From IMG/VR virus record IMGVR_UViG_3300042892_003674: a DNA stretch of 64,000 nucleotides, one strand, 5' to 3'. Under the pieces are notes generated by a model. The model was given only the letters and a program-made list of their open reading frames with translations. It did not search any database and was not told where the DNA came from. The DNA comes from a virus (Duplodnaviria; Heunggongvirae; Uroviricota; Caudoviricetes). Positions 6,246-46,601 of this stretch are shown piece after piece; position 1 is the first letter of the stretch; each line of letters begins with the position of its first letter. The translations under genes were made by a program, and so were the position numbers.

Positions 6246-6250
6246 TTTTG

Positions 6251-6323: not shown

Positions 6324-6329
6324 ATTTTG

Positions 6330-7481: not shown

Positions 7482-7685
7482 ATGCCCGCCCGCTCAAAAC
7501 AGCAATTAAAGTACATTTTTGCGATGCGTCGTAAATATAAAAACAAAAAAAGTGCTCCTAAACATATGAAGTGGGTATTTAACAAAGATTGGACCCACGA
7601 TGTCAATGTAAGTGGGTTACCAACCAAAGTTAAAAGCTTTCAAACTTATGTAAGTGAGAACTACGATGCTACTACTAAAAAGTAG
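7482..7685 (+). CDS. Candidate small Lys/Arg-rich basic protein, possibly nucleic-acid binding.
   Basis: 67 aa from ATG 7482: MPARSKQQLKYIFAMRRKYKNKKSAPKHMKW... It begins with an unusually GC-rich stretch, gcccgcccgc. It sits in an otherwise non-coding gap. The competing antisense ORF 7415..7627 is hydrophobic junk. Confidence 0.3.
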   Translation: MPARSKQQLKYIFAMRRKYKNKKSAPKHMKWVFNKDWTHDVNVSGLPTKVKSFQTYVSENYDATTKK

Positions 7686-12961: not shown

Positions 12962-14182
12962 TTAGTGTTCACTGTCCTTTATTTTAGATAATACCGCTTG
13001 AACCCTTGTATTATGTACCTCATCAACAATTTCTTTTCTTACTGAAAGTTCATAAAGTAAAGCGGTTGTATCATCAATCTCTTGTCCTGGTTCAATAGTA
13101 TGTTTTTCTAATACTGAAAAAGCAATTGTTGGATCTTCTTTATATAGTTCCAATAATGATTTTAATATTGTAACTTGTTCAGTTAGTTTATAACCTCTTA
13201 GATTAAGAATTGTCTTTGGTAAAAACTTAATTGTTTTTGAAAGTAATTTCATATCTTCTAAATCAACACCACCATCTACATAATCTTCATTTATAAATAA
13301 AGGTCTCAATTGATTCCATATATCCACCAATTCCGGTTTCATATAAATGTTTCTTAGATAAAATAAGAAATCGTCACCTTTATGAATTGCAAGTAGATTA
13401 TTATCTAATAATACCTCTTTTTTAGTTTTTAAAGTCCATAGATTTACATCTTTGTCATATGTCGTTTTGACGTGTGTCATACAATCTAAATCTTGTTCTA
13501 TTGTAAAATAGTTTTCAAGTATCTTATGATTGTTAAACATATTAAAATATCTATCTTGAAATCTAACTTTATAAACATCTTGAAGTTGACGAGATAAGAC
13601 CCCTTGAATAATCTCTAATTCAAATAAGTCTAAATCAACTTTTAGTTCTTCTGATTTCTTTACAATTCTAATTGCCGTATGACACGGTGTTTTCAAATTA
13701 GTTATCTGTAATTTACCTTTATTTAAGAACTTCTCAAATTCTGGTGTCCAATAAAACTTATCTTCTTCAATTGAATAACCAATTGCGGTACAATTTATAT
13801 CAAATGATTTGATAATGATTTCTGGATTATGAGTATTTGATTTATAACTAACGTAGTTGAATATACCTTCTGTAGTTGATTCACAAATAGAATAATAGTT
13901 TTTGGCTCTATCAATAAATCTTAGTCCAGAATAATCATCATACCAGACATTTTCTTCATCTTCTTTAAATGAATAAAGGTATTCTCTTCTATCTTCGTTA
14001 TAGTTTTCTAAGAGTCCATCAAACAAAAAAACATCAATATCATTGATGATTGCTTTTGTTCCAGAAACCTCTTCCCAGATAAGATTTGAAATAGAACCTC
14101 CTGCAATAAATCCTCTTTTAGGTAATCCCCATTGTGATTTTATTTTATCAAGAGCTCTTTTTGCTAACTGTTCAACGTTCAT
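12962..14182 (-). CDS. Putative Pol-beta-superfamily nucleotidyltransferase. Possibilities include a CCA-adding or tRNA-repair enzyme or a cGAS/CD-NTase-like enzyme; this is unresolved.
   Basis: 406 aa; N-terminal GGS...(22 aa)...DIDVF (GS-DxD-like) motif. Confidence 0.7.
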   Translation of the reverse strand: MNVEQLAKRALDKIKSQWGLPKRGFIAGGSISNLIWEEVSGTKAIINDIDVFLFDGLLENYNEDRREYLYSFKEDEENVWYDDYSGLRFIDRAKNYYSICESTTEGIFNYVSYKSNTHNPEIIIKSFDINCTAIGYSIEEDKFYWTPEFEKFLNKGKLQITNLKTPCHTAIRIVKKSEELKVDLDLFELEIIQGVLSRQLQDVYKVRFQDRYFNMFNNHKILENYFTIEQDLDCMTHVKTTYDKDVNLWTLKTKKEVLLDNNLLAIHKGDDFLFYLRNIYMKPELVDIWNQLRPLFINEDYVDGGVDLEDMKLLSKTIKFLPKTILNLRGYKLTEQVTILKSLLELYKEDPTIAFSVLEKHTIEPGQEIDDTTALLYELSVRKEIVDEVHNTRVQAVLSKIKDSEH

Positions 14183-14322
14183 TACTTTTGTTTTTTAATA
14201 TTTAAAACTTTTGCTACGTGGTCATTTATTACTCTAACAGTAGTATCAGAAGAAGTCGGATTTACATCATTCACTTCTTCTGATTGTTCTTCTGTTGTTT
14301 TTATTTCTTTGTCTTTATTCAT
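14182..14322 (-). CDS. Micro-ORF, 46 aa and acidic, with TAATG stop/start coupling. Possible anti-sigma or regulator.
   Basis: MNKDKEIKTTEEQSEEVNDVNPTSSDTTVRVINDHVAKVLNIKKQK. Its ATG immediately follows the sigma gene stop, and its TAA overlaps the ATG of the next gene. Confidence 0.35.
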   Translation of the reverse strand: MNKDKEIKTTEEQSEEVNDVNPTSSDTTVRVINDHVAKVLNIKKQK

Positions 14323-14925
14323 TTAGTCTAAATACATTTCATCTATTTGTTCAAACTCTTTCCTAGATTGTTCCATCAAAATCTGACGACCATTTCTAAT
14401 TTGAGATTTTATTGTAGATAGATTCTTTCCTAAAGTATCTGCAATGTCTTTGTATTGCATTCTTTCTATCTCTCTCATTATAATAACTGTCTTATACGGC
14501 TCTTTTAACTCGTCGATATGTTTTTTCATTACATCTGCTTTTTGTGTGAAAACATCATAGATAGCTTCATTACTTTCAGTTTCTTGTATGAAATCTTTTA
14601 AAGTAGTTCCTTCATCATCAAACTCAATGTCTAATGATATGTTTCTATTTTCTAGTTTTTTATCTTGTAAAGATAAGTTTTTTGCGATTGTGAATAACCA
14701 CGTTGAGAATTGTGATTTTTCTTTTTGATACATTTCTATTTTTTCCAGAGCTATCATAAATGAGTCTGTCGAAATATCTTCTGCTTTTTGTACATCATTA
14801 CAAATTCTTGATGTAAAGTAGATTAGTTTTGGGTAATACTTTTGGTAAAGTGTTGCGAAGTCTTTACCTGTTCTTTCTTTAAAAATTTTCTCTTGTTCAG
14901 AGAATGGGGTTTTGCTTAATTCCAT
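14323..14925 (-). CDS. Sigma-70 family (ECF-like) RNA polymerase sigma factor.
   Basis: Region 2 (STWLFTIAKNLSLQDKK) and region 4 HTH (YKDIADTLGKNLSTIKSQIRNGRQIL), 200 aa. Confidence 0.85.
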   Translation of the reverse strand: MELSKTPFSEQEKIFKERTGKDFATLYQKYYPKLIYFTSRICNDVQKAEDISTDSFMIALEKIEMYQKEKSQFSTWLFTIAKNLSLQDKKLENRNISLDIEFDDEGTTLKDFIQETESNEAIYDVFTQKADVMKKHIDELKEPYKTVIIMREIERMQYKDIADTLGKNLSTIKSQIRNGRQILMEQSRKEFEQIDEMYLD

Positions 14926-14927
14926 AG

Positions 14928-14994
14928 ATTGCTTTTGATTTTTCTTTTTGACATGCTGTCAATTGCTTTTGATTGATTTCTTTTGATTGATTTT
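14928..14994 (-). promoter_or_regulatory. Regulatory region upstream of the sigma gene: palindrome TTGACAtgcTGTCAA flanked by nested direct repeats.
   Basis: ATTGCTTTTGATT appears twice (14928-14940 and 14962-14974), CTTTTGATTGATTTT appears twice (14966-14980 and 14980-14994), and the palindrome lies at 14948-14962. Confidence 0.45.
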
Positions 14995-15035
14995 GTGCTT
15001 GTAATTATTCTAATTGCCGTAATATTATTATATGA

Positions 15036-15053
15036 TATATATATTAAAAGTTG
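15036..15053 (-). promoter_or_regulatory. Conserved TTTTAATATATATA motif ~110 nt upstream of the sigma factor gene.
   Basis: Minus strand reads CTTTTAATATATATATCAT. Confidence 0.4.
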
Positions 15054-15457
15054 TCGGGTTCCTTGAGAATCTCTTTTATTTTTATATCTCTAATATACGA
15101 TTTACTTTCAAATAATTTTTCAATACGTTCATTCAATTCATTAGAATTAAATATAAGTTTACTAAACCTTTCTGCAGTAAATCCTTTACTTACAAGGTAT
15201 TCAAAACACATAGGTGCTAGTTCTTCTTCTGGTAGTAAATAGGATCTACCACCATGTAAGTCTAACTCATTCTCAAAAGTTCCAAACACAAGATAATAAA
15301 AATCTTCATCTTTATTGAAATCTTCCCAAAATGATACTATTTCACTATATAATGTATCTCCACAATGACCGTCGTCGTCATAATAATCACTGCCATCAAA
15401 TTCATCTAATGGTCCTAACCGACTGAGCATAAACCCTCTAATTTCTTTTAATGTCAT
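15044..15457 (-). CDS. Hypothetical acidic protein.
   Basis: 137 aa. Confidence 0.6.
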   Translation of the reverse strand: MTLKEIRGFMLSRLGPLDEFDGSDYYDDDGHCGDTLYSEIVSFWEDFNKDEDFYYLVFGTFENELDLHGGRSYLLPEEELAPMCFEYLVSKGFTAERFSKLIFNSNELNERIEKLFESKSYIRDIKIKEILKEPDNF

Positions 15458-15459
15458 AT

Positions 15460-15828
15460 TTATTTAAGTATTTGCTCGATTTTATCATTTCTTTTAGTTG
15501 CTAAATCATCTTCAATCCATTCAATATTACCCGATAACATCCAAGTATTATCAACCATATCCGAAATCTTCTTTCTAATATTATCATCATTGAATTTAGA
15601 TTGACTTGCAACCATTGATATAACTTTTACTTTTGATCTTAGTGAAGTTTTTTCTAACTCACCTAATTCAAATTGAACATCAAATGACTTACCATCACAA
15701 GTATAATGGTTTGACCAAATACCTCTTTTAATAAATTTTATTTTTTTACTTTGATCTTTACCTATGAAGTAAAGACAAGTAGAACCCATACCTAGTATGA
15801 GTCCTATAAATATCCCTAACCAAATCAT
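15460..15828 (-). CDS. Hypothetical membrane protein with an N-terminal transmembrane helix.
   Basis: MIWLGIFIGLILGMGSTCLYFIG; 122 aa. Confidence 0.6.
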   Translation of the reverse strand: MIWLGIFIGLILGMGSTCLYFIGKDQSKKIKFIKRGIWSNHYTCDGKSFDVQFELGELEKTSLRSKVKVISMVASQSKFNDDNIRKKISDMVDNTWMLSGNIEWIEDDLATKRNDKIEQILK

Positions 15829-15829
15829 A

Positions 15830-16423
15830 TTATTTTGTTTTACGTTTTCTTCTTAATGCAATCTTGGCTTCTTTAAAAACTGAAAGTAATTCATCACTAA
15901 CTGGATTAGTCACATATTTTCTTTGAGAATAATCATAGTATCTATGAGAACTACAATCTCTAAAATTATGAATAGTTAAAATTGCTTTCATCCACTCTAA
16001 ATCAGTAGATAAATTTAAAAGATATCCTTTGTGATCAATAATGTATTTTTTGAAATTATCAATCTCAAATTTTACATTATTTAATCCGTGTAAAGTATTT
16101 GCTCTTCTTTTCACATCTTTCTCTAATGTAGGATACATACTTACTATTGTTAGTACTGCATTATCCATTGGGTCTAATTGATCTAATAAAGATTTTAATT
16201 GAAGATCTCTCTCATTACTAACTTTAGTTTGATCTACTCTTGCTTTATAATCAACAAGTGTACCAGACTCACTAACTTCAAAAATTTGATAAGTCATTCT
16301 TGCAGCATAACTGTTTTCAAAATCTTGTCTTGAAATTATTCTTTTTATATTATTTAAAAAGGTTGTTTCGGATCTATAGACAGAATCACCTAATACAAAT
16401 ATTTTATTTCTCTTCTTCGCCAT
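15830..16423 (-). CDS. Hypothetical protein.
   Basis: 197 aa. Confidence 0.65.
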   Translation of the reverse strand: MAKKRNKIFVLGDSVYRSETTFLNNIKRIISRQDFENSYAARMTYQIFEVSESGTLVDYKARVDQTKVSNERDLQLKSLLDQLDPMDNAVLTIVSMYPTLEKDVKRRANTLHGLNNVKFEIDNFKKYIIDHKGYLLNLSTDLEWMKAILTIHNFRDCSSHRYYDYSQRKYVTNPVSDELLSVFKEAKIALRRKRKTK

Positions 16424-16712
16424 TTAATATATTTTTTAATCTATTTTCTCTTAATTCTTTAACAATAAAACTTTTATCCTTATTAAACTCGTAGTAGTAA
16501 CGAAATTTATAAGCATTTAAAATAGTATGTAGTTGGTCTTTATTTGCCTTATGAAGGTTCTTAATAATACCCTCTTCGACATTTTTGAAAGTAGCTGCTT
16601 CTATATTAGAAGAAAAATTCTTGGCTCTAATTGCAAAGTCTTGTAAATCTAATATGTCTTTTTGAAGATTCTCTAATCTTTCAATAATTACTTCTGATAT
16701 ATCTCCTTTCAT
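16404..16712 (-). CDS. Hypothetical protein.
   Basis: 102 aa. Confidence 0.55.
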   Translation of the reverse strand: MKGDISEVIIERLENLQKDILDLQDFAIRAKNFSSNIEAATFKNVEEGIIKNLHKANKDQLHTILNAYKFRYYYEFNKDKSFIVKELRENRLKNILNGEEEK

Positions 16713-18547
16713 TATGATAATAAGTTTTCTAATTCTTCTACTGTTAAGATTACAACTCCAAGAGAGATAGCTTTCGTTTCTTTACTTGAGCCCGAACCTT
16801 TTGATTTCATTACTAAGTATGTTGTAGTTTTGGATACAGAACCAGCAACTTTACCACCACGTGATTCAATTACTTCTTCTAAATCTTTTCTACGAACACC
16901 AGTAAATACAAATGATTTACCTTCTAAATCTGTGCCAACTTTTACTGTTTCTACTTTCTCTACAATTTTTACAGGAAGATTTCCTACAAATGTAAAGAAA
17001 TTATCGTAATTATCCACAAAAACTTTTGCAGAAATTTCAGCAAATCCTTCAATCTCCATAACTTGGTCAACTGTAGGTTTAGTTGTAAAGTGTTCTAATA
17101 AAGCTAACTTCTTACTACCTAATCCTTTGAACAAGCCTGTGGCGTGTTGAAGTTTAGATAGTTGAACATCAGTAACCGATTTTTGAATTGAGTTATAAAC
17201 AATCTGAGCTTTTCTTTTACCAAATCTGTCAATCTTCTCTAATTGATCTGTAGTAACATTTAAAATGTCTTCGATAGTTTTATAACCAGCATCCCATAAT
17301 TGAGTGATGATACCTTCTGACACATTGTCTGCTTCTAAGATTTCAAAGAACGCAATATTTTGTCTTATCTTTTGATCGTCAGTCTCAGTCAAAGTAACTA
17401 ACTCAATACCATTTTCATTCCATTCGATTTCAGTACCGTCAACAACTGGCATAACAAAGTCAACAGTTTCTAATACTTCAACAATCAATGGAATAACCAT
17501 ACCACTTCTCTTAACTACAACTTTCGCACCAATTCCTAAACCCATATCTTTTACGAATTTAGCATTGTTACCAGTTACGTTAGAAACAGTAACACCGTCT
17601 AATTTAATTGGAGTAATATGTAAAACAGGTTTTAAGAGTCCGTGTTTAGAGATATTCCAAGAAATACCTAATACTGTCGCCTCTGCTTTTTGTTCAAAGG
17701 AGTCGTGTTTAAATGCTCTTGCGTAACAAGGATTGTTAGAAGAAGTCTCACGACCTAGACTATTTTGTAAGTTAAGATCATTTACTTCAAGAATTATACC
17801 ATCGATTTCATAATCAGTAGACCATCTTTTGAATAACTCTACTAAAAAGTCTTCTGTAATATCTTTGGCGATAAATAAATGATAGTTTACTTTAACTTCT
17901 TGACCAGTGTTTAATATATCCAATATGTCTGACTTAGTTCTAAAGTTAAATCCTTCATTTGGTATAGCACCATATTTAATAAATTGTAAATCTTTTAGGG
18001 GTTCAGTTACCTCTTTTGAGTTAAGTAAGCCAGCAACTAAGTTTCTTGGATTGGCAAACTCTGTTGAATATTTATCAATAAAAACTTGTTTAGGCATGAT
18101 AACCTCACCGTAAGTATATGTGAATGGATCACTTTTTAAAGATAAGTGATTTTTTATTAGTTTGTAGTGTTCATCTGACTTCTGGCCGAACTCACCATCG
18201 CCTCTAGTCCAGGTATTTGTATTGATTTCGTCATGACATAAAGAAAGTCCATCATATTTTGGAGTACATACAATTTCGGTATTCGGATTGATACCTTTTA
18301 ATCTTAACCATGTGTGTATGTCTTCAATGGTTTTAATTTTATTCATAGAAGCCATATCGATAGGTAATCTTGACTTTCTTGTTTCATCAAGAACTTCAAT
18401 TCCTACTTTTGAAAAAATTTCATTTTCTGGATCATATGAATATAATAATTCAAGTAATGAATCATACTCTTTATCAGACATAATTTCATTACCAGTTCTA
18501 TAAGCGATATTTGCTTCTTCTAATTTTGTTACTATTCTATCTATCAT
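16712..18547 (-). CDS. ligA: NAD-dependent DNA ligase (LigA).
   Basis: KYDG adenylation motif without the Arg seen in ATP ligases, OB and HhH regions, and a C-terminal BRCT (KSFVFTGVRRKDLEEVIESRGGKV); 611 aa. Confidence 0.85.
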   Translation of the reverse strand: MIDRIVTKLEEANIAYRTGNEIMSDKEYDSLLELLYSYDPENEIFSKVGIEVLDETRKSRLPIDMASMNKIKTIEDIHTWLRLKGINPNTEIVCTPKYDGLSLCHDEINTNTWTRGDGEFGQKSDEHYKLIKNHLSLKSDPFTYTYGEVIMPKQVFIDKYSTEFANPRNLVAGLLNSKEVTEPLKDLQFIKYGAIPNEGFNFRTKSDILDILNTGQEVKVNYHLFIAKDITEDFLVELFKRWSTDYEIDGIILEVNDLNLQNSLGRETSSNNPCYARAFKHDSFEQKAEATVLGISWNISKHGLLKPVLHITPIKLDGVTVSNVTGNNAKFVKDMGLGIGAKVVVKRSGMVIPLIVEVLETVDFVMPVVDGTEIEWNENGIELVTLTETDDQKIRQNIAFFEILEADNVSEGIITQLWDAGYKTIEDILNVTTDQLEKIDRFGKRKAQIVYNSIQKSVTDVQLSKLQHATGLFKGLGSKKLALLEHFTTKPTVDQVMEIEGFAEISAKVFVDNYDNFFTFVGNLPVKIVEKVETVKVGTDLEGKSFVFTGVRRKDLEEVIESRGGKVAGSVSKTTTYLVMKSKGSGSSKETKAISLGVVILTVEELENLLS

Positions 18548-18616
18548 AATTATTATATTTTTACAAATATACGAATTTTATTTTAAATAACAAATAAACC
18601 ATTAAAGAAAACTGAC

Positions 18617-18632
18617 AATTTAATATATACTA
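18617..18632 (+). promoter_or_regulatory. Upstream motif CAATTTAATATATACT.
   Basis: 20 nt before the ATG at 18652. Confidence 0.4.
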
Positions 18633-18651
18633 AAAAATCAAAAATCATAAA

Positions 18652-21600
18652 ATGGTTCAAAGTTCATTTCCAAAAGTAGCGGATCAAATAATAACGTATA
18701 ATAAAAATATTGTTGAAATTTTATCTAAGATCAATTCTTTAACGACAACAACAGATTCTTCTGTTACTCTTCAAGTATATGATGAGAATGGTGTATTGAG
18801 AAATTTTACATTACCTTCTTTTACATCATTAAAAGCAGATATTGATAGATTAAATAATAATATTAATTCGCTTTATAGTATTGATGCAGCAGGTGCTTTA
18901 ATTCAAACCTCAACACAAAATAAATACAAAAAGATTATTACAGTTGATTTGAATAGAGATCCTACTCCAATTGGAAGTTTGGGTACTTTAAGTACTTTTA
19001 AATCTTCTGCCAATTGGTTTTTCGATTCACTTATGGATCCTATGGTTTCTGTAGAACTTGACTTATCGGGTAAAATAGAAGATAATGTTAGAAAGTGTTT
19101 AATTAGACGATATATTGTAGATTTTGCAAAAAACGCTGATGGTTCTTTTACTACATTAGGACAATCTGCACTTAATAGTTATAATCAATTATTTAGATCG
19201 AATGCAAATATTATTATATCGGAATTTGAAAACTGGTATACTACTACTACTGGATTATTAAATCCAACTAATCCTAAGTATGATGAACAAATGTTTGATT
19301 TAGAACCTAACAACTTACTATATGATGGTCAATTTAGTGTTTTAAGAATACAAGAAGATAGATTGAATAGAAAACTTTGGTATGTTCTAGACACTTTAGA
19401 TTATTTAGTAGTTGATACAAATTCAACTAGAAAGCTATCTATTGGAGATGAGGTTATTATAAATTCAGAAAAAACATCAACAAGATATAAAATATTAGAA
19501 GTTTCTACTGCAGAATCTAATCCAAGAATTAGAGTGGAAAGAGTTGAGGGTATCGAACCAATTCCGGTTGGAATTGGAACTTTGAAGATCTATTCATCTG
19601 TTATCTATACTAAGAGGGTTAGAGTAAGTGTTGGTTATAATGAAAGAAATGTTCTTTTTGTTAAACCAGTAAATGCTGATAATAATCTAGTTGCAAAAAA
19701 ATGGAGTTTAGGTACTGGTTATTATACAAATGATTTGAGACTTACTTCTGATTCTAGTGCAAATGGATTATCAATGGAACAATTCTATATTGATTACGTT
19801 TATGATTATGGTGTTGTTCTACAAGATTTAGTTGCAAAGAAAACACCAAACTCATTGGCAGGGACACCTGGATCACCAGTACTTGCATTGGATAACTTTA
19901 AAGTAGTTCAAATAAATAAACACCTTACAGATACACCAGACTCTAACTTAGTTAAACAAAAACATAATTATCAATTGTCTTTGAAGTCAGAGATACAACA
20001 ATTACAAGAAGCTATTTTATCAAGAAATAAAGCAGCAAAATTTACTAAGTTTAAATCAGACTCTGCAAAAAAACAAGCGGATTTAGAAGTTGAAGAACTA
20101 ACAAATAAGAAAGATAGTAAAAGTAAATTACTTGCTTCTGTTACTCAAGAAGTTATTGACTTGTCTAAGGATCCAAAAAATAAAGTTGCACCTAAATTTA
20201 GTGTAAGAGGTTTCTGGACAATTCCAAGTGCAGTAGTTACTACTGGTACTAAACCTCAAGAAATTGTACAATTTAGAATACAATATAGATATACTAGTAA
20301 AGATGGTAGAGAAGCACCTGTAGATACATTTACAATTACAGATTCTCAAAGTAAGGCTTCTTTTTCTAACTGGACAGAATTTAAAACTGATGCAAGAAAG
20401 AGAGAGTATAACACTTCAACAGGTGAATATACTTGGGCTATTGAGGATGTTACTAGTGCAGATACTCCAAATATTAATCAAATAGATATTCCGATACAAT
20501 CTAATGAAAGAGTTGATATTAGAATTAAATCTATATCAGAAGTAGGATGGCCCGAGTCTGCGGTTGAATCGGACTGGTCTGAGATTATTACAATTGATTT
20601 CCCAGATGATCTAAATACGATTGCAAATGAAAATGATTTTATTTTAACAACTGCAACTAAAGAGGATTTAAAAATAAGTATGAATTCTGAGTTGTCTGCA
20701 AAAGGTTTAGATAATCACTTAGCAGATACAGTAACCGTAAATAATGTTACGTTCCATCATGATGCGAAAAAGATTTTATCTGGTTTCCAAGATGAGAATG
20801 GTGTTTCATTAGATTTGTATGTGTATATACAAAAGTTATCTGATAGAATTACATCATTAGAAGAGAAAATTACAAGAGCTAAAGGTGAACTACAAATTAT
20901 TATTCTTAGAAATAATCAAGAGTTTATAGTAAATAATGGTTCTGAGACAACATTTAATGTTGAATGTGAAGACTATTGTACTTTATTTAATGGTCAAGGT
21001 GCACCAACTGGTAGAGTTTATGAAAATAATATTTATGTTATTAAAGATTTTGTTATGAAAATTAAAAATAATGCAAAGGAATCATTACTAGGTTTACTAT
21101 CTAATAGAACTTATTTACAAAGTAGTTCTGTGTATAATACACAAGCACCTCAAAGTTTTTGGGTAAATAATCAAGACGAGTTATTGACAAATGATGTTAT
21201 TGAAACTAGTCAAACAAGAACACACTTAGATAATCAATTTGTTTGGCAAATGAATTATGATTCTATTACACAGAATACTGTGGCAAAATTATCTGAAAAT
21301 ATAGGTAATACATTTGATAATCCGACAGTAAATTCAAACTCTATAACAAATATACTTTCAACAAGTGATTATAATGTTGGTTATAATGAATCAAGTATTC
21401 TAAAATTTATTGGTAATAATAAATCCTTATTAGACCCTGCAAAATGGAATGATGTAACTGTATCAATTGCATCAACAACCAAATTCTTAACAACTATACA
21501 TCCAGTGGTTAAAAGTTTAGAGAATATACAAGAGAATAATAGTGATAAGGTTAAAACAGTAAATGTTGGTGATAAAAATTCTATTATAATTCCATTAAAT

Positions 21601-21858
21601 ATTTATTTTAAACTTAATTCATTAGATAATAGTCAAACTGGATTAAACTATCAATATATTGATCTTAATAATTCAACAAAAACGGTAAAACATGTTAAGA
21701 AAATTAAATTCTTCTTAGAAAATGAGGCAGAAAATAGACCATTTATATTTACATTAAAATTTAACTTAAATAGAAATAAAGTTATTGTAAGAAAATTCAA
21801 CTCAACTGGTGGTAGTCCAGCATATATAGATGATTGGTCAACATCAAGTAAAAAATAA
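18652..21858 (+). CDS. Large hypothetical virion-structural candidate.
   Basis: 1068 aa, Asn/Thr/Ser-rich, no enzymatic motifs. Confidence 0.85.
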   Translation: MVQSSFPKVADQIITYNKNIVEILSKINSLTTTTDSSVTLQVYDENGVLRNFTLPSFTSLKADIDRLNNNINSLYSIDAAGALIQTSTQNKYKKIITVDLNRDPTPIGSLGTLSTFKSSANWFFDSLMDPMVSVELDLSGKIEDNVRKCLIRRYIVDFAKNADGSFTTLGQSALNSYNQLFRSNANIIISEFENWYTTTTGLLNPTNPKYDEQMFDLEPNNLLYDGQFSVLRIQEDRLNRKLWYVLDTLDYLVVDTNSTRKLSIGDEVIINSEKTSTRYKILEVSTAESNPRIRVERVEGIEPIPVGIGTLKIYSSVIYTKRVRVSVGYNERNVLFVKPVNADNNLVAKKWSLGTGYYTNDLRLTSDSSANGLSMEQFYIDYVYDYGVVLQDLVAKKTPNSLAGTPGSPVLALDNFKVVQINKHLTDTPDSNLVKQKHNYQLSLKSEIQQLQEAILSRNKAAKFTKFKSDSAKKQADLEVEELTNKKDSKSKLLASVTQEVIDLSKDPKNKVAPKFSVRGFWTIPSAVVTTGTKPQEIVQFRIQYRYTSKDGREAPVDTFTITDSQSKASFSNWTEFKTDARKREYNTSTGEYTWAIEDVTSADTPNINQIDIPIQSNERVDIRIKSISEVGWPESAVESDWSEIITIDFPDDLNTIANENDFILTTATKEDLKISMNSELSAKGLDNHLADTVTVNNVTFHHDAKKILSGFQDENGVSLDLYVYIQKLSDRITSLEEKITRAKGELQIIILRNNQEFIVNNGSETTFNVECEDYCTLFNGQGAPTGRVYENNIYVIKDFVMKIKNNAKESLLGLLSNRTYLQSSSVYNTQAPQSFWVNNQDELLTNDVIETSQTRTHLDNQFVWQMNYDSITQNTVAKLSENIGNTFDNPTVNSNSITNILSTSDYNVGYNESSILKFIGNNKSLLDPAKWNDVTVSIASTTKFLTTIHPVVKSLENIQENNSDKVKTVNVGDKNSIIIPLNIYFKLNSLDNSQTGLNYQYIDLNNSTKTVKHVKKIKFFLENEAENRPFIFTLKFNLNRNKVIVRKFNSTGGSPAYIDDWSTSSKK

Positions 21859-21867
21859 TAGTTTAAA

Positions 21868-24800
21868 TTGAAAAGTTTTGGTTTATTAAGAACAAATGTT
21901 GGATTGACAACAAATATTAAGGTTATGGTTGATACTAGTTATAAACTAAGTTTAGATAGTATTGAATCTGATCCTAACTTATCTTTTGATAAATTTAAGA
22001 AGGTTAGTTTTACTAAAGATAACTACTATGATGAGTTGATACCATACTTTTACAAAACTTTACCGGCAGATACTGCATTTTCAATTAAGTATGAAAATGA
22101 TGTTGATACAATGTCAAATGATTTTAAAAATCAATATGATGAATTGTATAGTTATGGAGCTCGTAATATAGTTAATAATAAAAACTATACTGAAGAGTAT
22201 GAATATTTTGCACCTTTATACATTACTAAAAATCATTTACCTAAAAACTTTATTATTTTTAGAGTTGATGGTTCTGGTATAGGGACTACAGATAGAAATA
22301 ACTTTAATACGGAAATAATTAAAAAATTAAAGACAGTTAAATTATTTGATTTAAGTAAGCAAAGTGTATTGGGTGAGTGGTTAGGAAAGAATTTTATAGA
22401 TAATAAATATTTCCCAGATTCTCCATTGGATATAGATTTTAGAAATTTGGAATTTTGTAGATGGAATGGTATAGATTATCAGAATGGTGGATATACATAT
22501 AAATCTTTATTTATTGATGATATATTAGACGAGGAAAAAGAAATATTTGAACTTGAGAAGTTTATATTTGACTCTTATAAAAATAACAAAGTTGTTTTTC
22601 CTAATATATTAAACTTCTCGTTTTTATTCGATGATAAACCATCAACACCCGAAATTAAAAGAAAATGGTCTATAAATAGATATTATGGATTTTACTTAAA
22701 TGATTTAGAATTGATTAAAACGGTTTCACCTTATTTATCAGTACCTTTACGTAGTGATATTATTGTTACTCAAAATAGTAGTAATACTGGAATATCAAAT
22801 ATAATTTACTCACCAAGTAATGACAATCCATTTCTTCAAGAATGGTCAAGTAAAAAACCATTTTATGTAGAATATAATGGAAATTATTATAAAGTAGAAC
22901 AATTTACTGAAACTATTTCAAATCAATTAGTTAAAATTAATAATCCATTAAGTAATACCGAAAGTAGAATGTCAAAAGATTTGGGATTTAGTTCATCAAA
23001 ATATAATCCAAATGCGAGTGTTATAAAAAAATCAGTTACGACAAATACTAAATCCGCAGTAGAGGATTTTACAGATGTTATTGTTACAAAATATAAAATA
23101 ATAACTGACTTAAATTTAACTGGCTTAACTGCATCTAGTTTTAACCAAAATTATGCAGAGATTGATACTACTAATAAACTAATTACTAGTGATGGTAGTA
23201 CAATAAAAGACCTTCAAATAAATGGTTTTGATGATGCCGATGTTTGGATAATTGAAATCGATGGTATATATCATAACTTAGTTAAGATAGATAATTATAT
23301 AATGCTTAGTACAGATTATTCTTTTATTTTTAACCAAAATGACTTCATATATAAAGTTGGAGGTGAATCTACAAAAGTTAGTACGGTAGTTGATTTCAAT
23401 AATGAACCTAAGAAGTTTTCAATTTATAAATTAAATTTCTCTGATATAAAAGATTTTGATACAAGAATTGTTGATACTGATTATTCAAAATATGAATATG
23501 AGGAGTCTACAAATATTACTTCTACTGATGAGACAAAAATGTATTTAGAAGATATAAGAAGTTTAACTGACCCTATAAATTTAGATGATTTTAGTTATCA
23601 AAATAGAATAGTTAATATACCAACATCTTCCGAATATACTGCTAATTATGAGACATTTAAAATAGATGGTAATGATTTATCTGAAATATGGAGAAAAAAT
23701 CCGGTTTATTGTAAATGGGGATTTCATAAATCACTTTCTGCAAATGATTTACCATACTCATTAAATAACTCTTTAATTTTTGAGGACTTTAATAGAACGG
23801 CCAATATTTATGAACCATTTCCAATAAGATCTGAAAGAAATTTAGATTATTTTTATACAATAAACTCGGCATCATCTTCTTATGTTTATCATAGTTTACA
23901 TGTGCAAAATTTAGATAGTAATAATAATATAGATACTACATTTAAGTTTGAATTAAATAAGTATTTAAACTTTACATATTCTTATTTTGATAGTGTTACT
24001 TCAACAACACAGTCAACAACATCATATCCATATGACTATTTTACATATCTATTTAGTAAATCTAGTAAATTATTTAATGGTAAAATTAAAGAGAATTCTA
24101 ATAAATATTCGTATTTTAATGTAGGTGATGAGTCAGTACCAAATCATACTTTATTTAGAGGTATAAAATTTGATATTTATGAAGTTGATAGTATCAAGAT
24201 CAATACAAATAATCAAATTGATAAAATCAATATAAAATCATCTAATTTATTTGATGATTATAAATTTTCGGTTTTACTATCTGACAATAACTCTACACCA
24301 ATATTTGATACTAGTGATACTAGTAAAGTAATTGGTCTTACCGCTTCAGATAGTAAACTTATTTGGAATGTTATTGATGAATGGAAAATGGATAAACAAT
24401 ATGTATATGGTGGAACAGGTTGGGCAAATGCAATAAAAGTTTTACATGATGATATTCTATACTTTAGAAATTCTTCAAGTACTACTAATAATCCAATATT
24501 TGCAACATATGGTATTACAATACCGTCTGCGCCTTACACACAAAGATGGAGTTATAACAATGATAGAAATAGTGTTTTTTGGTCACCATTAGTAATGGGA
24601 TATAGTTCTGCAATAAGTGGTGCAAGTCCATCAGTTGTATATAATTCGGGAGAATATTATTATTGTGCATCGGAATCCAATACTATTGATTTTTGGAACC
24701 CAGCAAAATCTATTACAACCGGTTATACAACTGCATCAATAGTTATCTATAAAAATAATTATTATACATCATTAGTTGATAATAATTACTTCAAACCAAC

Positions 24801-26067
24801 TATGAATACTTGGACTATGTCTTCGGGTACTCCATCAAAATGGGAATTAGTAGAGTCTTGGAATTCAACTAAACAATACTATTATGATGGTACATTTTCT
24901 GGTAATGTTGTTTATAATAATAATATTTATAAATTATCTTGGGTATCTGCAAGTGCTAGTATTTTTGTATTACCTGGTATCAATCCAATACAATCAAACT
25001 ATTGGGTAGAAAGAAGGGATAGATCATTTAATTCAGTTGCGGGTACAAATTCAATAATTAGATTAAATAATAGATATAATATTTTAGTTGGTGGTGGACA
25101 ATCTACTCCTTCTAATCTTAATAATGGTATTGTTATTTACATCAATAAGAAGTGGAAGAATGTATTAGTAAATATAAACATAAGTGATGGTACAACACCA
25201 AATATATCTAATTCAAATAGAGATAGTTTATATAATGATATAAATCAAAAGCTAACTGCTGCAAATTTTACAAATGCAATAAATGATATTACTAATAAAT
25301 ATGGATTTAGTAACTATCTATCATATATTATTATTGATGAAAATAATAATATTAAAAGATACAGTTATTCACCGATTGATGGTGGTAGTATAAAAGATTT
25401 ACCATATATACTAAAGTGTGAAGAGCCAGATAAATTAGATGTTAAAGTGAATTCATTATTTAAAAGAGCGGTTGAACTTCCAAATACACTAAATCCAATT
25501 AAAAAATTGGATGCGGGAAGAATAGTGGATATAACAGAATTAAATTATTATAATAATATTCCAGTTGCTGCTAATATTATTGAAAATCAATATCCACCTA
25601 AAGTTTTTGAGAACTATCATGGTAATAAAAATATTATCTCAAACGAAATACATAGATTTAGTGGTTATTATAGTCCTGTCTTTTATGATATTCAATTATT
25701 TGAAAGAGATTCTAATGGAATACCATCGGGTGGTAATTATAAATTTGATACTTTATTAAATAATTTTGGTTTAATGAGAGAAAGAAAGATCAGAAAAATC
25801 AACAGAAAAGGAAACATATTAAGATTGGGTAACATAAATGATGAAAAGTCAATATATCCAATGTTAGATGAGTTTGGATATTCTATTTATGACTTTTTTA
25901 TATTCTCATCAACTTGGGATTTAAAGTATTATTTAGAAACCGTTTCTAATAGTAAAAATAAAGATTATTTACAAAAATATACTGCGGATGAAAATGTAAT
26001 AAATACATTTGATATTACGACACCAATTGTAATACCATCTTTTATAGGAAAAACACAAGATAATTAA
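21868..26067 (+). CDS. Large hypothetical virion-structural candidate.
   Basis: 1399 aa; Asn/Tyr/Ser-rich. Confidence 0.85.
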   Translation: MKSFGLLRTNVGLTTNIKVMVDTSYKLSLDSIESDPNLSFDKFKKVSFTKDNYYDELIPYFYKTLPADTAFSIKYENDVDTMSNDFKNQYDELYSYGARNIVNNKNYTEEYEYFAPLYITKNHLPKNFIIFRVDGSGIGTTDRNNFNTEIIKKLKTVKLFDLSKQSVLGEWLGKNFIDNKYFPDSPLDIDFRNLEFCRWNGIDYQNGGYTYKSLFIDDILDEEKEIFELEKFIFDSYKNNKVVFPNILNFSFLFDDKPSTPEIKRKWSINRYYGFYLNDLELIKTVSPYLSVPLRSDIIVTQNSSNTGISNIIYSPSNDNPFLQEWSSKKPFYVEYNGNYYKVEQFTETISNQLVKINNPLSNTESRMSKDLGFSSSKYNPNASVIKKSVTTNTKSAVEDFTDVIVTKYKIITDLNLTGLTASSFNQNYAEIDTTNKLITSDGSTIKDLQINGFDDADVWIIEIDGIYHNLVKIDNYIMLSTDYSFIFNQNDFIYKVGGESTKVSTVVDFNNEPKKFSIYKLNFSDIKDFDTRIVDTDYSKYEYEESTNITSTDETKMYLEDIRSLTDPINLDDFSYQNRIVNIPTSSEYTANYETFKIDGNDLSEIWRKNPVYCKWGFHKSLSANDLPYSLNNSLIFEDFNRTANIYEPFPIRSERNLDYFYTINSASSSYVYHSLHVQNLDSNNNIDTTFKFELNKYLNFTYSYFDSVTSTTQSTTSYPYDYFTYLFSKSSKLFNGKIKENSNKYSYFNVGDESVPNHTLFRGIKFDIYEVDSIKINTNNQIDKINIKSSNLFDDYKFSVLLSDNNSTPIFDTSDTSKVIGLTASDSKLIWNVIDEWKMDKQYVYGGTGWANAIKVLHDDILYFRNSSSTTNNPIFATYGITIPSAPYTQRWSYNNDRNSVFWSPLVMGYSSAISGASPSVVYNSGEYYYCASESNTIDFWNPAKSITTGYTTASIVIYKNNYYTSLVDNNYFKPTMNTWTMSSGTPSKWELVESWNSTKQYYYDGTFSGNVVYNNNIYKLSWVSASASIFVLPGINPIQSNYWVERRDRSFNSVAGTNSIIRLNNRYNILVGGGQSTPSNLNNGIVIYINKKWKNVLVNINISDGTTPNISNSNRDSLYNDINQKLTAANFTNAINDITNKYGFSNYLSYIIIDENNNIKRYSYSPIDGGSIKDLPYILKCEEPDKLDVKVNSLFKRAVELPNTLNPIKKLDAGRIVDITELNYYNNIPVAANIIENQYPPKVFENYHGNKNIISNEIHRFSGYYSPVFYDIQLFERDSNGIPSGGNYKFDTLLNNFGLMRERKIRKINRKGNILRLGNINDEKSIYPMLDEFGYSIYDFFIFSSTWDLKYYLETVSNSKNKDYLQKYTADENVINTFDITTPIVIPSFIGKTQDN

Positions 26068-26069
26068 AA

Positions 26070-26768
26070 ATGAGAAGAAGTTATATATCACCTGAATATC
26101 AGAATAGGGCAGTTTATGGAACATTAAATATGGTTGAGGAGAGTACTTTCTTTGGTGCTAAAATGCTTGAGGTAGAAGACTCTATAATAATAGATAATCA
26201 AGATATTATATATTATCAAAGAACTAATGGAGAGCAGTTAGATGTTTCTGTTGAAACATCATTAGACTCGTATGTTTATTCACCAGGTGGTAATAATGGA
26301 GATAAGTTTAAAAATCATACCTTAGTCATTGATACTACACAACCAAAATTTCAACTAGATAATAATACTAGATGGATACTAACTATTGATCTAAAAACAA
26401 TACTTACTAATTATTTATTTGCAACACTTAAAAAGTATAGAACTTTTGAAGGTGTTAAGAATGATATGACAATGTTTAATGATGTGAACGTTGCAGTGAC
26501 TAGTTATGTACGTTCAAATGTTTTAGATAGATATAAGTATAAAAGTGTGGAACTTTATGTAAGATACCAAGATTTAAGAAATCAGAACTTACTTAGATAT
26601 AATAATACGTGGTCAACTAATATAATAGATCCTACTTATAAACTAATTAAGATACAAACTGAAACAGAGTTTGATCAATCTTCAATTAAAATAATGTTTA
26701 ATCAAGAAAAACCAAGTTCTTCTTATAAATTTGACTATTACTTTAACATTTTATTTGAAAAAATATAA
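26070..26768 (+). CDS. Hypothetical protein.
   Basis: 232 aa, tightly packed after the previous CDS. Confidence 0.7.
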   Translation: MRRSYISPEYQNRAVYGTLNMVEESTFFGAKMLEVEDSIIIDNQDIIYYQRTNGEQLDVSVETSLDSYVYSPGGNNGDKFKNHTLVIDTTQPKFQLDNNTRWILTIDLKTILTNYLFATLKKYRTFEGVKNDMTMFNDVNVAVTSYVRSNVLDRYKYKSVELYVRYQDLRNQNLLRYNNTWSTNIIDPTYKLIKIQTETEFDQSSIKIMFNQEKPSSSYKFDYYFNILFEKI

Positions 26769-26784
26769 ACCTTATCATTTAATT

Positions 26785-26800
26785 ACTTATAATATATAGT
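26785..26800 (+). promoter_or_regulatory. Upstream motif ACTTATAATATATAGT.
   Basis: Ends at the ATG at 26801. Confidence 0.4.
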
Positions 26801-27166
26801 ATGAATAACGAAGAATTAAATGAAATTTTGGCAAACTTTTTAAAGATGTTTAAGAATAGACCTTATCATCTAGCAAAATATCTAATTGAAAATTCTGCTC
26901 TAAATAAACCATTCTTAAATAAAATAATAAAAAGTGCGAAGTTAAATAATCCTAAAACCCAGGATGTTTATTTAACTAGTATTTCTGAAATGGATGATTT
27001 TTATAGTTCCATTTTAGATCCGGTAAAAATAGGTAATAAAACTTTAGAAGAAGTTACTAAAGAGATAAATGATAAAATGGATGAGCTTATCAAAAACGAA
27101 AAGTTTGAAGAAGCTGCAAAGCTAAGAGATTATATGTTAAAAAAATCTATAAAAAGAATTAAATAA
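26801..27166 (+). CDS. Hypothetical protein with a UVR-like motif.
   Basis: 121 aa; the C-terminal EEAAKLRDYMLKK resembles the UvrB/UvrC UVR domain. Confidence 0.6.
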   Translation: MNNEELNEILANFLKMFKNRPYHLAKYLIENSALNKPFLNKIIKSAKLNNPKTQDVYLTSISEMDDFYSSILDPVKIGNKTLEEVTKEINDKMDELIKNEKFEEAAKLRDYMLKKSIKRIK

Positions 27167-27217
27167 TTTAAAACTTTTTAATAATTCACACTAAAACTTA
27201 AACACTAAAAAAATTAT

Positions 27218-28306
27218 ATGACAAACGAAATTTTAAACCCAGAAGTAGGAAACCCAAACTTTGAACTTTTATTTGAAGAAAAAAGTTACAGAAAGGGTAA
27301 GAATATGAGTGATAAAGACTTAGATGCTCTTTATAGCTCTATTAAATTAGAAATACCACAAGTAGGTAATGTGGTTAGATCTAGTTACCAAGGTATTATG
27401 GCAAATCAGTTTGTATTTAGCGTTGACGGATTCAAAGATGATGTTAGAGTTGAAGACAAACCAAATGAGGCAAAGTACCTTAAAAATTGCAACACTGGAG
27501 ATGAGGTTGATGTTTTAATTACCGAGATAAATCACGGTCAATATTTCATCAAAGGAAGTATAGCTTCTTTATATGAGTCAAGAGCTCACGAAAACCTTAA
27601 ATCTTTAGAGGAAGGAGAATCAGTAACTGCTTATGTAAGATCACTTAACCCAGCAGGTTACGATGTTGAAATCACAAATGGAGGAGTAACTCTTCCAGGA
27701 TTTATGCCAAATACCTTAGCTGGTATCAACAAACTTTACGACCCAACTTCAATCGTTGGTGATACGTTTCAAGTAATGATTGAGTCTTTCTCAGAACATG
27801 AAGGAACTTATATCGTAAGTCGTAGAAAGTATCTACAAACATTGATTCCAGAAGAAATTGGTAATCTTGAGTTTAACACCTTATATGGTGGTAGAGTAAC
27901 TGGAACAACACCGTTTGGTATCTTTGTTGAGTTCAACGAGTGCTTAACTGGTATGATTCACAAAGCTAACGTGACTGAGGAGTGGCAAAACAGAATCTCC
28001 GAAATTAAACCAGGACAAGAGATTGAGTTCTATATTAAAGAAATCATCAAGGAGAAAATTATCCTTACTCAAGTCTTGAGAGAAACACTTTGGGATAACA
28101 TCAAAAACGGTCAAGTTATTGATGGTAGAGTGAAAGATGTTAAACAATTTGGAACTTTAGTAATCTTAGATGATGAAACAGTTGGACTAATACACACTTC
28201 AGAAATGGAGAAATTAGGCAAAAAGTTTGTATCTGGACAAGACATCAAAGTAAAAGTTCTTTCTGTAGATCGTCAAAGTCGTAAGATTTTCTTAACGATT
28301 GGATAA
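27218..28306 (+). CDS. Ribosomal protein S1-like multi-S1-domain RNA-binding protein.
   Basis: 362 aa with about 4-5 consecutive S1/OB-like modules, for example GDEVDVLITEI...G, GESVTAYVRSLNPAGYDVEI, GRVTGTTPFGIFVEF and GQVIDGRVKDVKQFGTLVIL...GQDIKVKVLSVDRQSRKIFLT. Confidence 0.7.
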   Translation: MTNEILNPEVGNPNFELLFEEKSYRKGKNMSDKDLDALYSSIKLEIPQVGNVVRSSYQGIMANQFVFSVDGFKDDVRVEDKPNEAKYLKNCNTGDEVDVLITEINHGQYFIKGSIASLYESRAHENLKSLEEGESVTAYVRSLNPAGYDVEITNGGVTLPGFMPNTLAGINKLYDPTSIVGDTFQVMIESFSEHEGTYIVSRRKYLQTLIPEEIGNLEFNTLYGGRVTGTTPFGIFVEFNECLTGMIHKANVTEEWQNRISEIKPGQEIEFYIKEIIKEKIILTQVLRETLWDNIKNGQVIDGRVKDVKQFGTLVILDDETVGLIHTSEMEKLGKKFVSGQDIKVKVLSVDRQSRKIFLTIG

Positions 28307-28345
28307 TTTAAAAACGACCCATTTTTAAATGAAAGAACAAAATGA

Positions 28346-28372
28346 ACCCTAGAGAAATCTAGGGTTTTTTTA
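28346..28372 (+). terminator. Intrinsic terminator.
   Basis: aaCCCTAGAgaaaTCTAGGGttttttt. Confidence 0.7.
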
Positions 28373-28386
28373 TTTAATATATAATC
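28371..28386 (+). promoter_or_regulatory. Upstream motif TATTTAATATATAATC directly after the terminator.
   Basis: 22 nt before the ATG at 28409. Confidence 0.45.
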
Positions 28387-44951: not shown

Positions 44952-46601
44952 ATGACACCAATAATATTAGAATGGTCAAACGCATTTGACGTAGATAATA
45001 ATATAACCGGATATGAGTTATCGTATAAAACAACTGGATCTTGGATATCCTTACCATTTATAACATCCTCACAAACAAGTGGGAGTTATAGTTTCACACC
45101 AACACAACAAGTTACTCATTCATTTAGAATAAGAGTTCGTGATTCATTTTCTGCTGTTAGTTCATATAAATATTTTAATTATGTAATTAGTGCAGAATAT
45201 CAAATATCAAGTGTTTATTATAATAATACTTTCGATGAAAATAATGACGTACGTGATACATGTCAGATTGTATCAGATCCAACAAATACTTACACAGATA
45301 TTTATCTTAGTAGTGCACCACCTGCTGTTGGAGTTATTGTTTATACAGATCAACAACAAACAAACGATTATTTTGGACATAATGAATATTGGATAATTAA
45401 ATCACCATCTGGATTACACTATTCATGTTGGATAGATGATTTTGGCGTTATCCAGGCGGTATATTTATGTGGTGCAAATAGTGCACAGATTTCGGCAAAT
45501 GCACCAAACTGGTTAGGTCGTTTGGCTGCATCACAAACCTGTGGATTAGCACTTACTGGTACTGTATATTGGGATTCACAGTATTCTTTTGCGGTTGGTA
45601 CAATATTATATACAGATCCATTATTCACGACACCATTAAACGGTCAATCAAGATTCTTTCGTATGGAATATACTAATTCACTTGGGTTGACTTTAACAAA
45701 GATTGTAAAAGTTGGTAATCTAACAAACCCATCGGTTATAGTTTCTATGGATAATGTATCTACTGTGTGTTCTGCACTTTTTATGGCATATAGAACTACA
45801 GGAACGAATTTCAATACTAGTTTGGGTAACTCAATCGATGGAACTTCTTTATGTCAATTATCCCCAAATACAAAATGTTATATAAGGGTAGCAGATCCAA
45901 GTATTATTAGTACTGGTGATATAGTATACACTGTTAGTGGAACGAACGCGGGACCAACCTTTAGTGGAGGTAACCAATATTATAATATGTATATAGCTTT
46001 TGCTGCTAATGGACCAAATACTAATGCAATTTGTCAGGTTGATGATTATGGTGTAATAACAGTGCAAGGATACTGTAGTGGTAGTTCTGCTGGTTGTTGT
46101 TTATTACCCGGTACAAATATAACCTTATTTGATGGTTCTACTATTAGTATAGAAGATATAATTGGTGGTGAATCATTACTAACTTATAATATTGAAGAAT
46201 CAACTTTTGAAGAAGGCTTAGTTACCAATATATTTACTCCAATACATAATGATATTGTAAAACTTGTAATCGGAGATAATACAATAGATTGTACATCAAC
46301 ACATCCTTTCTGGTCAGTAAATAAGAAAGAATGGGTTTCTTTAAATCCTAAAGAAACTATGCTTACTATGAATATAAATATCGAACATTTAGAAATTGGT
46401 GATATTTTATTAAATGAGAGAAATGAAGAAGTTATATTAGATGATATTATACAAATAGATAGTGAAGATATAGTAACTTATGATATTTCAGTAGAACCAA
46501 ATCACACATATTATGCTAATAGTATATTAGTTCATAATAAAACTGATGAAAATGGGAATGACATAATATTTAACCCTATTAATAATTTTACTAACCCTTA
46601 A
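44952..46601 (+). CDS. FN3-like structural protein with a C-terminal Hint (intein-like/BIL) domain.
   Basis: 549 aa. N-terminal fibronectin-III-like fold (ILEWSNAFDVDNNITGYELSYKTTGSW). C-terminal Hint domain, described in the next feature. Confidence 0.9.
   Translation: MTPIILEWSNAFDVDNNITGYELSYKTTGSWISLPFITSSQTSGSYSFTPTQQVTHSFRIRVRDSFSAVSSYKYFNYVISAEYQISSVYYNNTFDENNDVRDTCQIVSDPTNTYTDIYLSSAPPAVGVIVYTDQQQTNDYFGHNEYWIIKSPSGLHYSCWIDDFGVIQAVYLCGANSAQISANAPNWLGRLAASQTCGLALTGTVYWDSQYSFAVGTILYTDPLFTTPLNGQSRFFRMEYTNSLGLTLTKIVKVGNLTNPSVIVSMDNVSTVCSALFMAYRTTGTNFNTSLGNSIDGTSLCQLSPNTKCYIRVADPSIISTGDIVYTVSGTNAGPTFSGGNQYYNMYIAFAANGPNTNAICQVDDYGVITVQGYCSGSSAGCCLLPGTNITLFDGSTISIEDIIGGESLLTYNIEESTFEEGLVTNIFTPIHNDIVKLVIGDNTIDCTSTHPFWSVNKKEWVSLNPKETMLTMNINIEHLEIGDILLNERNEEVILDDIIQIDSEDIVTYDISVEPNHTYYANSILVHNKTDENGNDIIFNPINNFTNP
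46098..46538 (+). other. Hint domain (mini-intein / bacterial intein-like, no endonuclease).
   Basis: Block A CLLPGTNITLFDGSTISIEDI, block B TSTHPFW (TxxH), C-terminal blocks VTYDISVEPNHTYYANSILVHN. The residue after HN is Lys, so canonical splicing is unlikely and only cleavage is expected. Confidence 0.75.

Follow-up and report, generated by a model that had tools for sequence, protein, structure and literature searches.

Bacterial ribosomal protein S1 (bS1) holds the S1/OB domain four to six times, and earlier metagenomic reports of viral bS1 have been mentioned (Mizuno et al., 2019). Analyses of huge phages listed rpS1 among their translation genes and described a 'possible rpS1' in phages lacking Shine-Dalgarno sequences; the protein was proposed to act in initiation 'on or off the ribosome', and its true rpS1 status was considered hard to confirm (Al-Shayeb et al., 2020, Nature 578:425). 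The huge-phage S1 gene and the initiation hypothesis are therefore already known. Here we analyze one such gene, located at positions 27218-28306 of a 64,000-nucleotide stretch (hereafter the window) of the Caudoviricetes record IMGVR_UViG_3300042892_003674. What we add is evidence of genuine derivation from bS1, a match specific to its domains D1 and D2, the four-domain architecture, conserved contact residues, an N-terminal motif and targets for mutation.

The phage protein resembles the bS1 of E. coli (RpsA) and Flavobacterium johnsoniae in its tandem S1/OB domains, which follow the same order, with D1 and D2 of the ribosome-binding type and D3 and D4 of the RNA-binding type. Equivalents of the E. 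coli K43 loop and of F120 and F130 are conserved as well. Its putative N-terminal helix-loop-helix resembles the form seen in Bacteroidia, and, as in Bacteroidia, the setting is one of A-rich leaders without Shine-Dalgarno sequences. Unlike bS1, which has 557-597 amino acids and six domains, the phage protein is phage-encoded, has 362 amino acids and four domains, and bears the motif FMPNTLAGINKL in D2. The Firmicutes S1 (PRK06676 type) also has four domains, but against that model the phage protein scores 93 bits where the cut-off is 368. Another jumbo phage, the cyanophage PhiMa05, was described in 2026 to encode bS1; unlike the gene in the window, the PhiMa05 gene is a recent acquisition from a Vampirovibrio-like host and has other ribosomal protein genes around it.

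Domain architecture of the S1-like protein

The gene and its domains are arranged as follows.

27218-28306, + strand: coding sequence of the S1-like protein, uninterrupted from ATG to the stop at 28306, 362 amino acids plus stop (list of open reading frames)
27218-27361, + strand: N-terminal 48 amino acids, with helix NFELLFEE, a loop and helix DKDLDALYSS; putative uS2 anchor
27362-27571, + strand: OB domain 1, residues 49-118, counterpart of bS1 D1 by family profile
27608-27832, + strand: OB domain 2, residues 131-205, counterpart of bS1 D2 by family profile
27872-28087, + strand: OB domain 3, residues 219-290, canonical RNA-binding S1 type by its FGxFV...GxxH signature
28103-28303, + strand: OB domain 4, residues 296-362, canonical RNA-binding S1 type by Pfam S1 and profile

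A preliminary description of the window had proposed a virus-encoded S1-like protein with four or five S1 domains, to be checked with the Pfam S1 profile and by structure prediction. The Pfam search matched S1 (PF00575) with an E-value of 5.5e-22, most strongly over residues 296-361 in OB domain 4, and found no other domain in the protein. An AlphaFold2 model built with 31 homologues (mean predicted local distance difference test score, pLDDT, 72.9; predicted template modelling score 0.41) shows four OB barrels at approximately residues 50-114, 133-201, 221-286 and 298-361. The proposed count is therefore right for four domains, and a fifth is not present in the model. Two short helices (residues 15-18 and 33-40) precede the barrels in an N-terminal segment of low confidence (pLDDT 37-44); the first of them, NFELLFEE, is acidic and aromatic. 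The ratio of nonsynonymous to synonymous substitution rates (dN/dS) is 0.10 against a 93%-identical relative, a sign of purifying selection, and homologues down to about 30% identity keep all four OB domains. Both observations indicate that the gene is functional.

Domain-specific homology to bacterial bS1

The NCBIfam rpsA models align collinearly with residues 36-361 of the phage protein; for TIGR00717, residues 50-361 correspond to model positions 19-342 of 516. The top match of a phmmer search against the PDB was E. coli bS1 (E=7.5e-24), with residues 49-359 aligned to residues 20-344, which comprise D1-D4. Foldseek ranked bS1 in 30S complexes first (9gut_B, E=2.5e-19), with RNase R and PNPase many orders weaker. 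BLASTP aligned phage residues 1-361 with residues 1-368 of a Bacteroidales bS1, starting from the first residue. Identity between the phage protein and bS1 is about 22-25%.

A 120-member family alignment was split by domain, and each domain profile was searched against E. coli bS1 and a Bacteroidales-type bS1, a 597-amino-acid protein taken from MT835643, a record wrongly labelled as bacteriophage. The family D1 profile scored 36.5 bits on D1 of Bacteroidales bS1 and 17.9 bits on D1 of E. coli bS1, with at most 11.3 bits on any other domain. The D2 profile gave 45.5 and 41.6 bits on the two bS1 D2 domains and no more than 15 bits elsewhere. The D4 profile scored 54.5 and 49.8 bits on bS1 D4, and the D3 profile peaked on bS1 D4/D5, so that by these scores phage D3 and D4 look like RNA-binding S1 domains of a generic kind. 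The D1 and D2 types bind the ribosome and are unique to bS1. Because the phage D1 and D2 profiles match only their bS1 counterparts, the comparison indicates that the phage protein derives from bS1, and this domain-specific match is the strongest evidence for it. The preliminary description was correct in seeing an S1-like multi-OB viral protein: its best matches in both sequence and fold are to bS1.

The MT835643.1 region that supplied the reference (13794-20897; locus L018) is labelled 'UNVERIFIED: Bacteriophage sp.' and carries a full six-domain bS1. The record appears to be a Bacteroidales chromosomal contig, and the open reading frame after bS1 looks like RNase Z.

We also considered two other readings, namely cellular contamination and a generic S1-domain protein akin to PNPase, RNase E/R, Tex or GSP13. 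The C-terminal domain does match the S1 domains of PNPase, GSP13 and RNase R with E-values of 1e-7 to 1e-21. These NCBIfam models, however, match just one or two C-terminal OB domains and stay below their cut-offs. Only the S1 part of the PNPase- and RNase-type models is covered, with residues 290-355 aligned to PNPase 611-681, and the scores are 50 against a cut-off of 525 and 30 against 598 bits. None of the catalytic or core domains of PNPase, RNase R, RNase E or Tex (RNase PH, RNB, RNase E catalytic, Tex core) was found in the phage protein, and the full-length collinear match goes to bS1. The preliminary description had named a closer affinity of the OB repeats to PNPase, RNase E or another non-ribosomal family as the finding that would overturn it; NCBIfam, phmmer and Foldseek all give bS1 as the best match. 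Contamination is contradicted by the neighbouring genes and by contigs of up to 640 kb, which are phage. Both possibilities are effectively refuted.

Conservation of contact residues and a candidate N-terminal anchor

In E. coli bS1 the K43 lysine points into the Zn pocket of uS2, and F120 and F130 line the mRNA pocket of OB2 (PMC4288201). Residue conservation was scored over 120 family representatives. The D1 loop GFK73 of the phage protein aligns with E. coli GLK43, and this position is lysine or arginine in 103 of the 120. E. coli F120 and F130 correspond to Y148 and F162 in the alignment; the first of these positions is aromatic in 117 and the second phenylalanine in 116 representatives. 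D3 and D4 retain the FGxFV...GxxH signature. Within D3, F233 is aromatic in 109/120, F236 in 119/120, and H248 is conserved in 93/120.

The N-terminal motif SFAQLFEES of E. coli bS1 places F5 and F9 in a stack on uS2 F32, and mutation of either to alanine abolishes ribosome binding (PMC4288201). Residues 1-42 of F. johnsoniae bS1 form a helix-loop-helix on uS2/uS8 with aromatics at positions 11-20 (PMC13000457). The NPNFELLFEE segment of the phage protein resembles both E. coli ESFAQLFEE and Bacteroidales ENFDWDAFEK. Other family members begin with NFDWDAC, SFDWDA or FSWEELE. A second helix follows downstream in the family N-termini, with YAQDLY elsewhere and DLDALY in the window protein. Among 119 family N-termini, patterns for the two helix motifs were found 69 times against 39±5 in shuffled sequences and 65 times against 23±4. 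These relaxed patterns were written after viewing the sequences, and their enrichment is only indicative; the stricter regular expressions tried at first were not enriched in the family N-termini (18 against 12 expected). An N-terminal uS2 anchor in the phage protein is suggestive only.

Distribution of the family among huge phages

We searched a phage collection with the S1-like protein by tblastn. The best matches lay in published huge-phage genomes, those curated by Al-Shayeb et al. (2020), which carry members of the same family. The top match was LR745206 (634,780 bp) at 66% identity, followed by LR756502 (642,428 bp) at 62%, LR756501/LR756503 (735,411 bp) at 43%, LR756504 at 40% and LR756500 at 31%. 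Gene order is shared with the two closest genomes, and the absence of Shine-Dalgarno sequences that correlates with the 'possible rpS1', as well as the hypothesis of initiation hijacking, applies equally to the window. The phage sampled by the window is distinct from those genomes, its S1-like protein being about 66% identical at best. An identical protein occurs on 11 metagenome contigs, and a version of 93% identity is encoded, beside the same neighbour genes, on a contig of 639,601 bp. These matches identify the window as part of a phage of about 640 kb of the Lak/'Mahaphage' type.

Partial matches to the S1-like protein were obtained in all Lak Prevotella megaphages (MK2500xx). The Lak protein has a homologous D2-D3 core at 37-41% identity, and its N-terminal SFDWSPY (SFDWSPYDDGW) resembles the NFDWDAF (NFDWDAFEKG) of Bacteroidales bS1. 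Unlike the window protein it has three OB domains; its D1 carries an insertion of about 25 residues, and where D4 would be there is an acidic C-terminal tail. The Lak genes lie at the following positions.

L006, 7524-8633: Lak S1-like gene
L007, 7440-8549: Lak S1-like gene

The family comprises 133 clusters at 50% identity (E<=1e-30), nearly all of 340-420 amino acids; IMG/VR contigs that carry it number at least 292 and reach lengths of 675 kb. There are a few long relatives of 774-811 amino acids, and cluster look-up returned almost no names or taxonomy. PHROGs contained no family for the S1-like protein (a match at E=0.41 to a nuclease family was ignored). A scan of GTDB genomes for bacterial bS1 relatives returned five contigs only and no cellular sister group of the phage family. 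The family is old, divergent and clade-specific. The preliminary description had called an S1-like gene rare in phages; that is so for phages overall, while within this huge-phage clade it is a standard gene, as reported in 2020.

The five GTDB contigs (L013-L017) come from metagenome-assembled genomes binned as Flavobacteriales, Ca. Muiribacterium, Flavobacteriaceae and Clostridium. At least L014 shares the gene order of the window, so that the five are probably phage sequence misplaced in bacterial bins. As a pointer to the host, the Flavobacteriales bins are a weak hint. The huge-phage clade has been predicted to infect Bacteroidetes (Al-Shayeb et al., 2020). From the relatives, Lak phages infecting Prevotella, the host would be of Bacteroidota type.

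Translation initiation context and the TTTAATATATA motif

Sixty open reading frames of the window were chosen greedily, and upstream positions -18 to -4 were scanned for the Shine-Dalgarno cores GGAG, GAGG and AGGA. None of the 60 had such a core in this interval. Their leaders contain 55-67% A at positions -18 to -9, with a peak at -13, and G is depleted (2-12%). By composition, such leaders follow the pattern known from Bacteroidia. Adenines at -3, -6, -12 and -13 raise translation in F. johnsoniae, where bS1 also stimulates initiation on mRNAs without Shine-Dalgarno sequences; A-12 and A-13 are postulated bS1 contacts (PMC13000457). In the preliminary description the host itself appeared to lack initiation led by Shine-Dalgarno sequences. 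The A-rich, core-free leaders bear this out for the phage genes.

The same description took a motif, TTTAATATATA, lying directly at viral start codons as fitting the idea that the viral S1 could steer initiation to AU-rich viral 5' ends. The window holds 11 exact copies, and 41 copies with one mismatch against 23±5 expected.

9560, 18619, 28373, 36473, 46626, + strand: exact copies of TTTAATATATA
58335, 38255, 30989, 15048, 6601, 5531, - strand: exact copies of TTTAATATATA
28373-28383, + strand: promoter-like TTTAATATATA copy of the next gene (28409), directly after the S1 terminator

Three copies directly follow intrinsic terminators, including that of the S1 gene at 28344-28367, and two precede tRNA arrays with only open reading frames of 25-36 amino acids behind them. 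By their distance to the next real ATG, the window copies fall into two groups: 4-5 nucleotides for five of the 11 copies and 20-25 nucleotides for three. Across 91 related phage loci, 18 of 33 copies stand 16-26 nucleotides upstream of an ATG. The copy after the S1 gene recurs at the same place, at 11154, in the locus of the 93% relative (L012), and the motif is also present in the fetched loci of the 735-kb phage and in Lak. The positions at terminators and tRNA arrays and the bimodal spacing mean that TTTAATATATA behaves as a promoter and not as a ribosome-loading element of fixed spacing; it looks like a clade-wide promoter. In a scan of the locus for the sigma-70 consensus, 100 matches were found against 97±10 in shuffled sequence. 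The placement at start codons described earlier holds for the five copies that end 4-5 nucleotides before an ATG; others lie 20-25 nucleotides away or before tRNA arrays, and the promoter-like behaviour removes the motif as support for targeting by S1. Copies at short spacing may give leaderless mRNAs, and the mix of spacings suggests leaderless or near-leaderless mRNAs together with mRNAs having A-rich leaders of about 20 nucleotides.

Gene neighbourhood and other contents of the window

Five genes lie close together on the + strand (18652-28306), the S1 gene coming last; they encode proteins of 1068, 1399, 232, 121 and 362 amino acids and are flanked by the TTTAATATATA copy at 18619 and a terminator at 28344. 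The immediate surroundings of the S1 gene contain the following elements.

26788-26798, + strand: near-consensus motif TATAATATATA with one mismatch, ending 2 nucleotides before the UVR ATG; candidate promoter of the UVR and S1 pair
26801-27166, + strand: 121-amino-acid UVR-domain protein (Pfam UVR), adjoining the S1 gene upstream
27167-27217, + strand: A-rich S1 leader ending in ACACTAAAAAAATTAT before the ATG, read directly; no GGAG-like core
28344-28374, + strand: intrinsic terminator of the S1 transcription unit, a 10-bp stem of GAACCCTAG and CTAGGGTTT followed by a T-run

The order of the 1399-residue, 232-residue, UVR and S1 genes is common to the window, LR745206, LR756502 and L014. The UVR-S1 pair is kept in five compared loci (L001, L002, L004, L012 and L014), in relatives down to 40% S1 identity, and the UVR-domain protein may be a functional partner of the S1-like protein. 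The 1068-amino-acid protein matches phrog_29329, of unknown function, which is the sole PHROG match among the S1 neighbours.

5112-6402 and 7661-8914, - strand: 12 tRNA genes, with Lys-UUU three times, Phe, His, Trp and Ser-UGA twice each, and Arg-ACG

A tyrosyl-tRNA synthetase gene adjoins the tRNA array. The window further encodes an NAD-dependent DNA ligase, an SbcC-like ATPase and large proteins without family match. Rfam matched tRNAs only. A tblastn search with E. coli bS21 against the phage collection returned no S21 in the related huge-phage genomes, although this probe is too distant for the result to mean absence. A 549-amino-acid protein at 44952-46601 (+ strand) has a HINT/intein-splicing-like C-terminal domain at residues 387-529, and its gene is flanked by two very large open reading frames of 1792 and 1530 amino acids with no family match. 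At 58349-62176 (- strand) a 1275-amino-acid fusion joins a methyltransferase domain to GT1 and GT9 glycosyltransferase domains.

Discussion

We favour the view that the protein is a phage-adapted minimal bS1, which would dock at the uS2/mRNA-exit site of the 30S subunit and use D3 and D4 to recruit A/U-rich leaders without Shine-Dalgarno sequences; we give this a probability of roughly 0.55. In infected cells of a Bacteroidota-type host, docking on the 30S subunit would be mediated by the N-terminal helix-loop-helix together with D1/D2, at the uS2/mRNA-exit site normally occupied by host bS1. The phage protein would supplement or replace the host protein there. D3 and D4 would capture the A/U-rich leaders and pass them to the decoding site, and phage translation would be sustained or favoured. 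From the homology and the identity of the domains, which are direct observations, we infer the docking and the selectivity for phage mRNAs; discrimination of phage from host mRNAs by the phage S1 is speculative. Further support comes from the 12 tRNA genes and the tyrosyl-tRNA synthetase in the window, the clade-wide occurrence of the family and the dN/dS of 0.10.

Several observations weigh against this view. The NCBIfam equivalog cut-offs are all missed, with scores of 115.2 against 624, 101.9 against 524, 99.4 against 577 and 93.4 against 368 bits; as a control, the 597-amino-acid Bacteroidales bS1 passes NF004953 with 969.6 against 720 bits. D5 and D6 are absent, the protein stopping after D4 and the E. 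coli alignment ending at residues 344-346 of 557. D2 bears the family-specific, near-invariant FMPNTLAGINKL, unlike the bacterial FLPGSL. In the annotation sense, the phage protein is not a bS1 orthologue. The D1 region alone gave no meaningful match in a phmmer search of the PDB. A hidden Markov model of the 48-residue family N-terminus had no significant match to E. coli or Bacteroidales bS1, so the argument for the anchor rests on short motifs and a low-confidence segment of the AlphaFold2 model. No translation-related gene was seen among the neighbours of the S1 gene. If many phage mRNAs are leaderless, the need for S1 becomes less obvious; in E. coli, leaderless mRNAs depend on S1 less than any other class.

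The missed cut-offs and the D2 motif would also suit a protein that works off the ribosome. It could be a chaperone or regulator that binds A/U-rich single-stranded RNA, stabilizing or unwinding mRNA or serving as cofactor of a phage nuclease or polymerase, with D1/D2 contacting a phage partner instead of uS2; host S1 acting with T4 RegB and Qβ replicase would be the parallel. D1/D2 of S1 bind Qβ replicase via the same surface, the structures 4q7j and 4r71 are among the Foldseek matches, and the conserved upstream UVR-domain protein is a possible partner. We consider this somewhat unlikely: the uS2-contact and OB2-pocket residues are conserved, the anchor-like N-terminal helix is kept family-wide, and neither a nuclease nor a replicase gene was seen among the genes adjoining the S1 gene.

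Two further alternatives keep the protein on the ribosome. A truncated protein that retains the ribosome-binding half and has lost D5-D6 could act as a competitive blocker, occupying the uS2 site, displacing host bS1 and stopping host translation that depends on D5-D6, with the ribosomes still able to translate phage mRNAs whose leaders are very short or missing. N-terminal fragments of E. coli S1 displace S1 and render ribosomes selective for leaderless mRNA, and the TTTAATATATA copies at 4-5 nucleotides from an ATG suggest such transcripts in the phage. A pure blocker would not need the RNA-binding signatures of D3 and D4, which are intact under purifying selection. In related phages, moreover, most TTTAATATATA copies stand 16-26 nucleotides from the ATG, so most mRNAs there would have leaders. 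Blocking is accordingly a very unlikely function. The other alternative extends the minimal bS1 we favour: the anchor, D1-D2 and the two RNA-binding OB domains would replace host bS1 on Bacteroidota ribosomes and make phage-specialised ribosomes that prefer transcripts from TTTAATATATA promoters, whether leaderless or with short A-rich leaders. We regard it as unlikely. If true, it would amount to viral exchange of the mRNA-recruiting ribosomal protein, with start-site selection reprogrammed without Shine-Dalgarno sequences.

How start codons are chosen in Bacteroidia without Shine-Dalgarno sequences is an active question, and bS1 together with upstream adenines is suspected to take part (PMC13000457). 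The phage family amounts to a natural deletion series, in which ribosome-contact features and two RNA-binding domains are kept, and it may indicate which parts of bS1 matter. The phage S1 is a concrete candidate for viral take-over of initiation, an idea that dates to Al-Shayeb et al. (2020).

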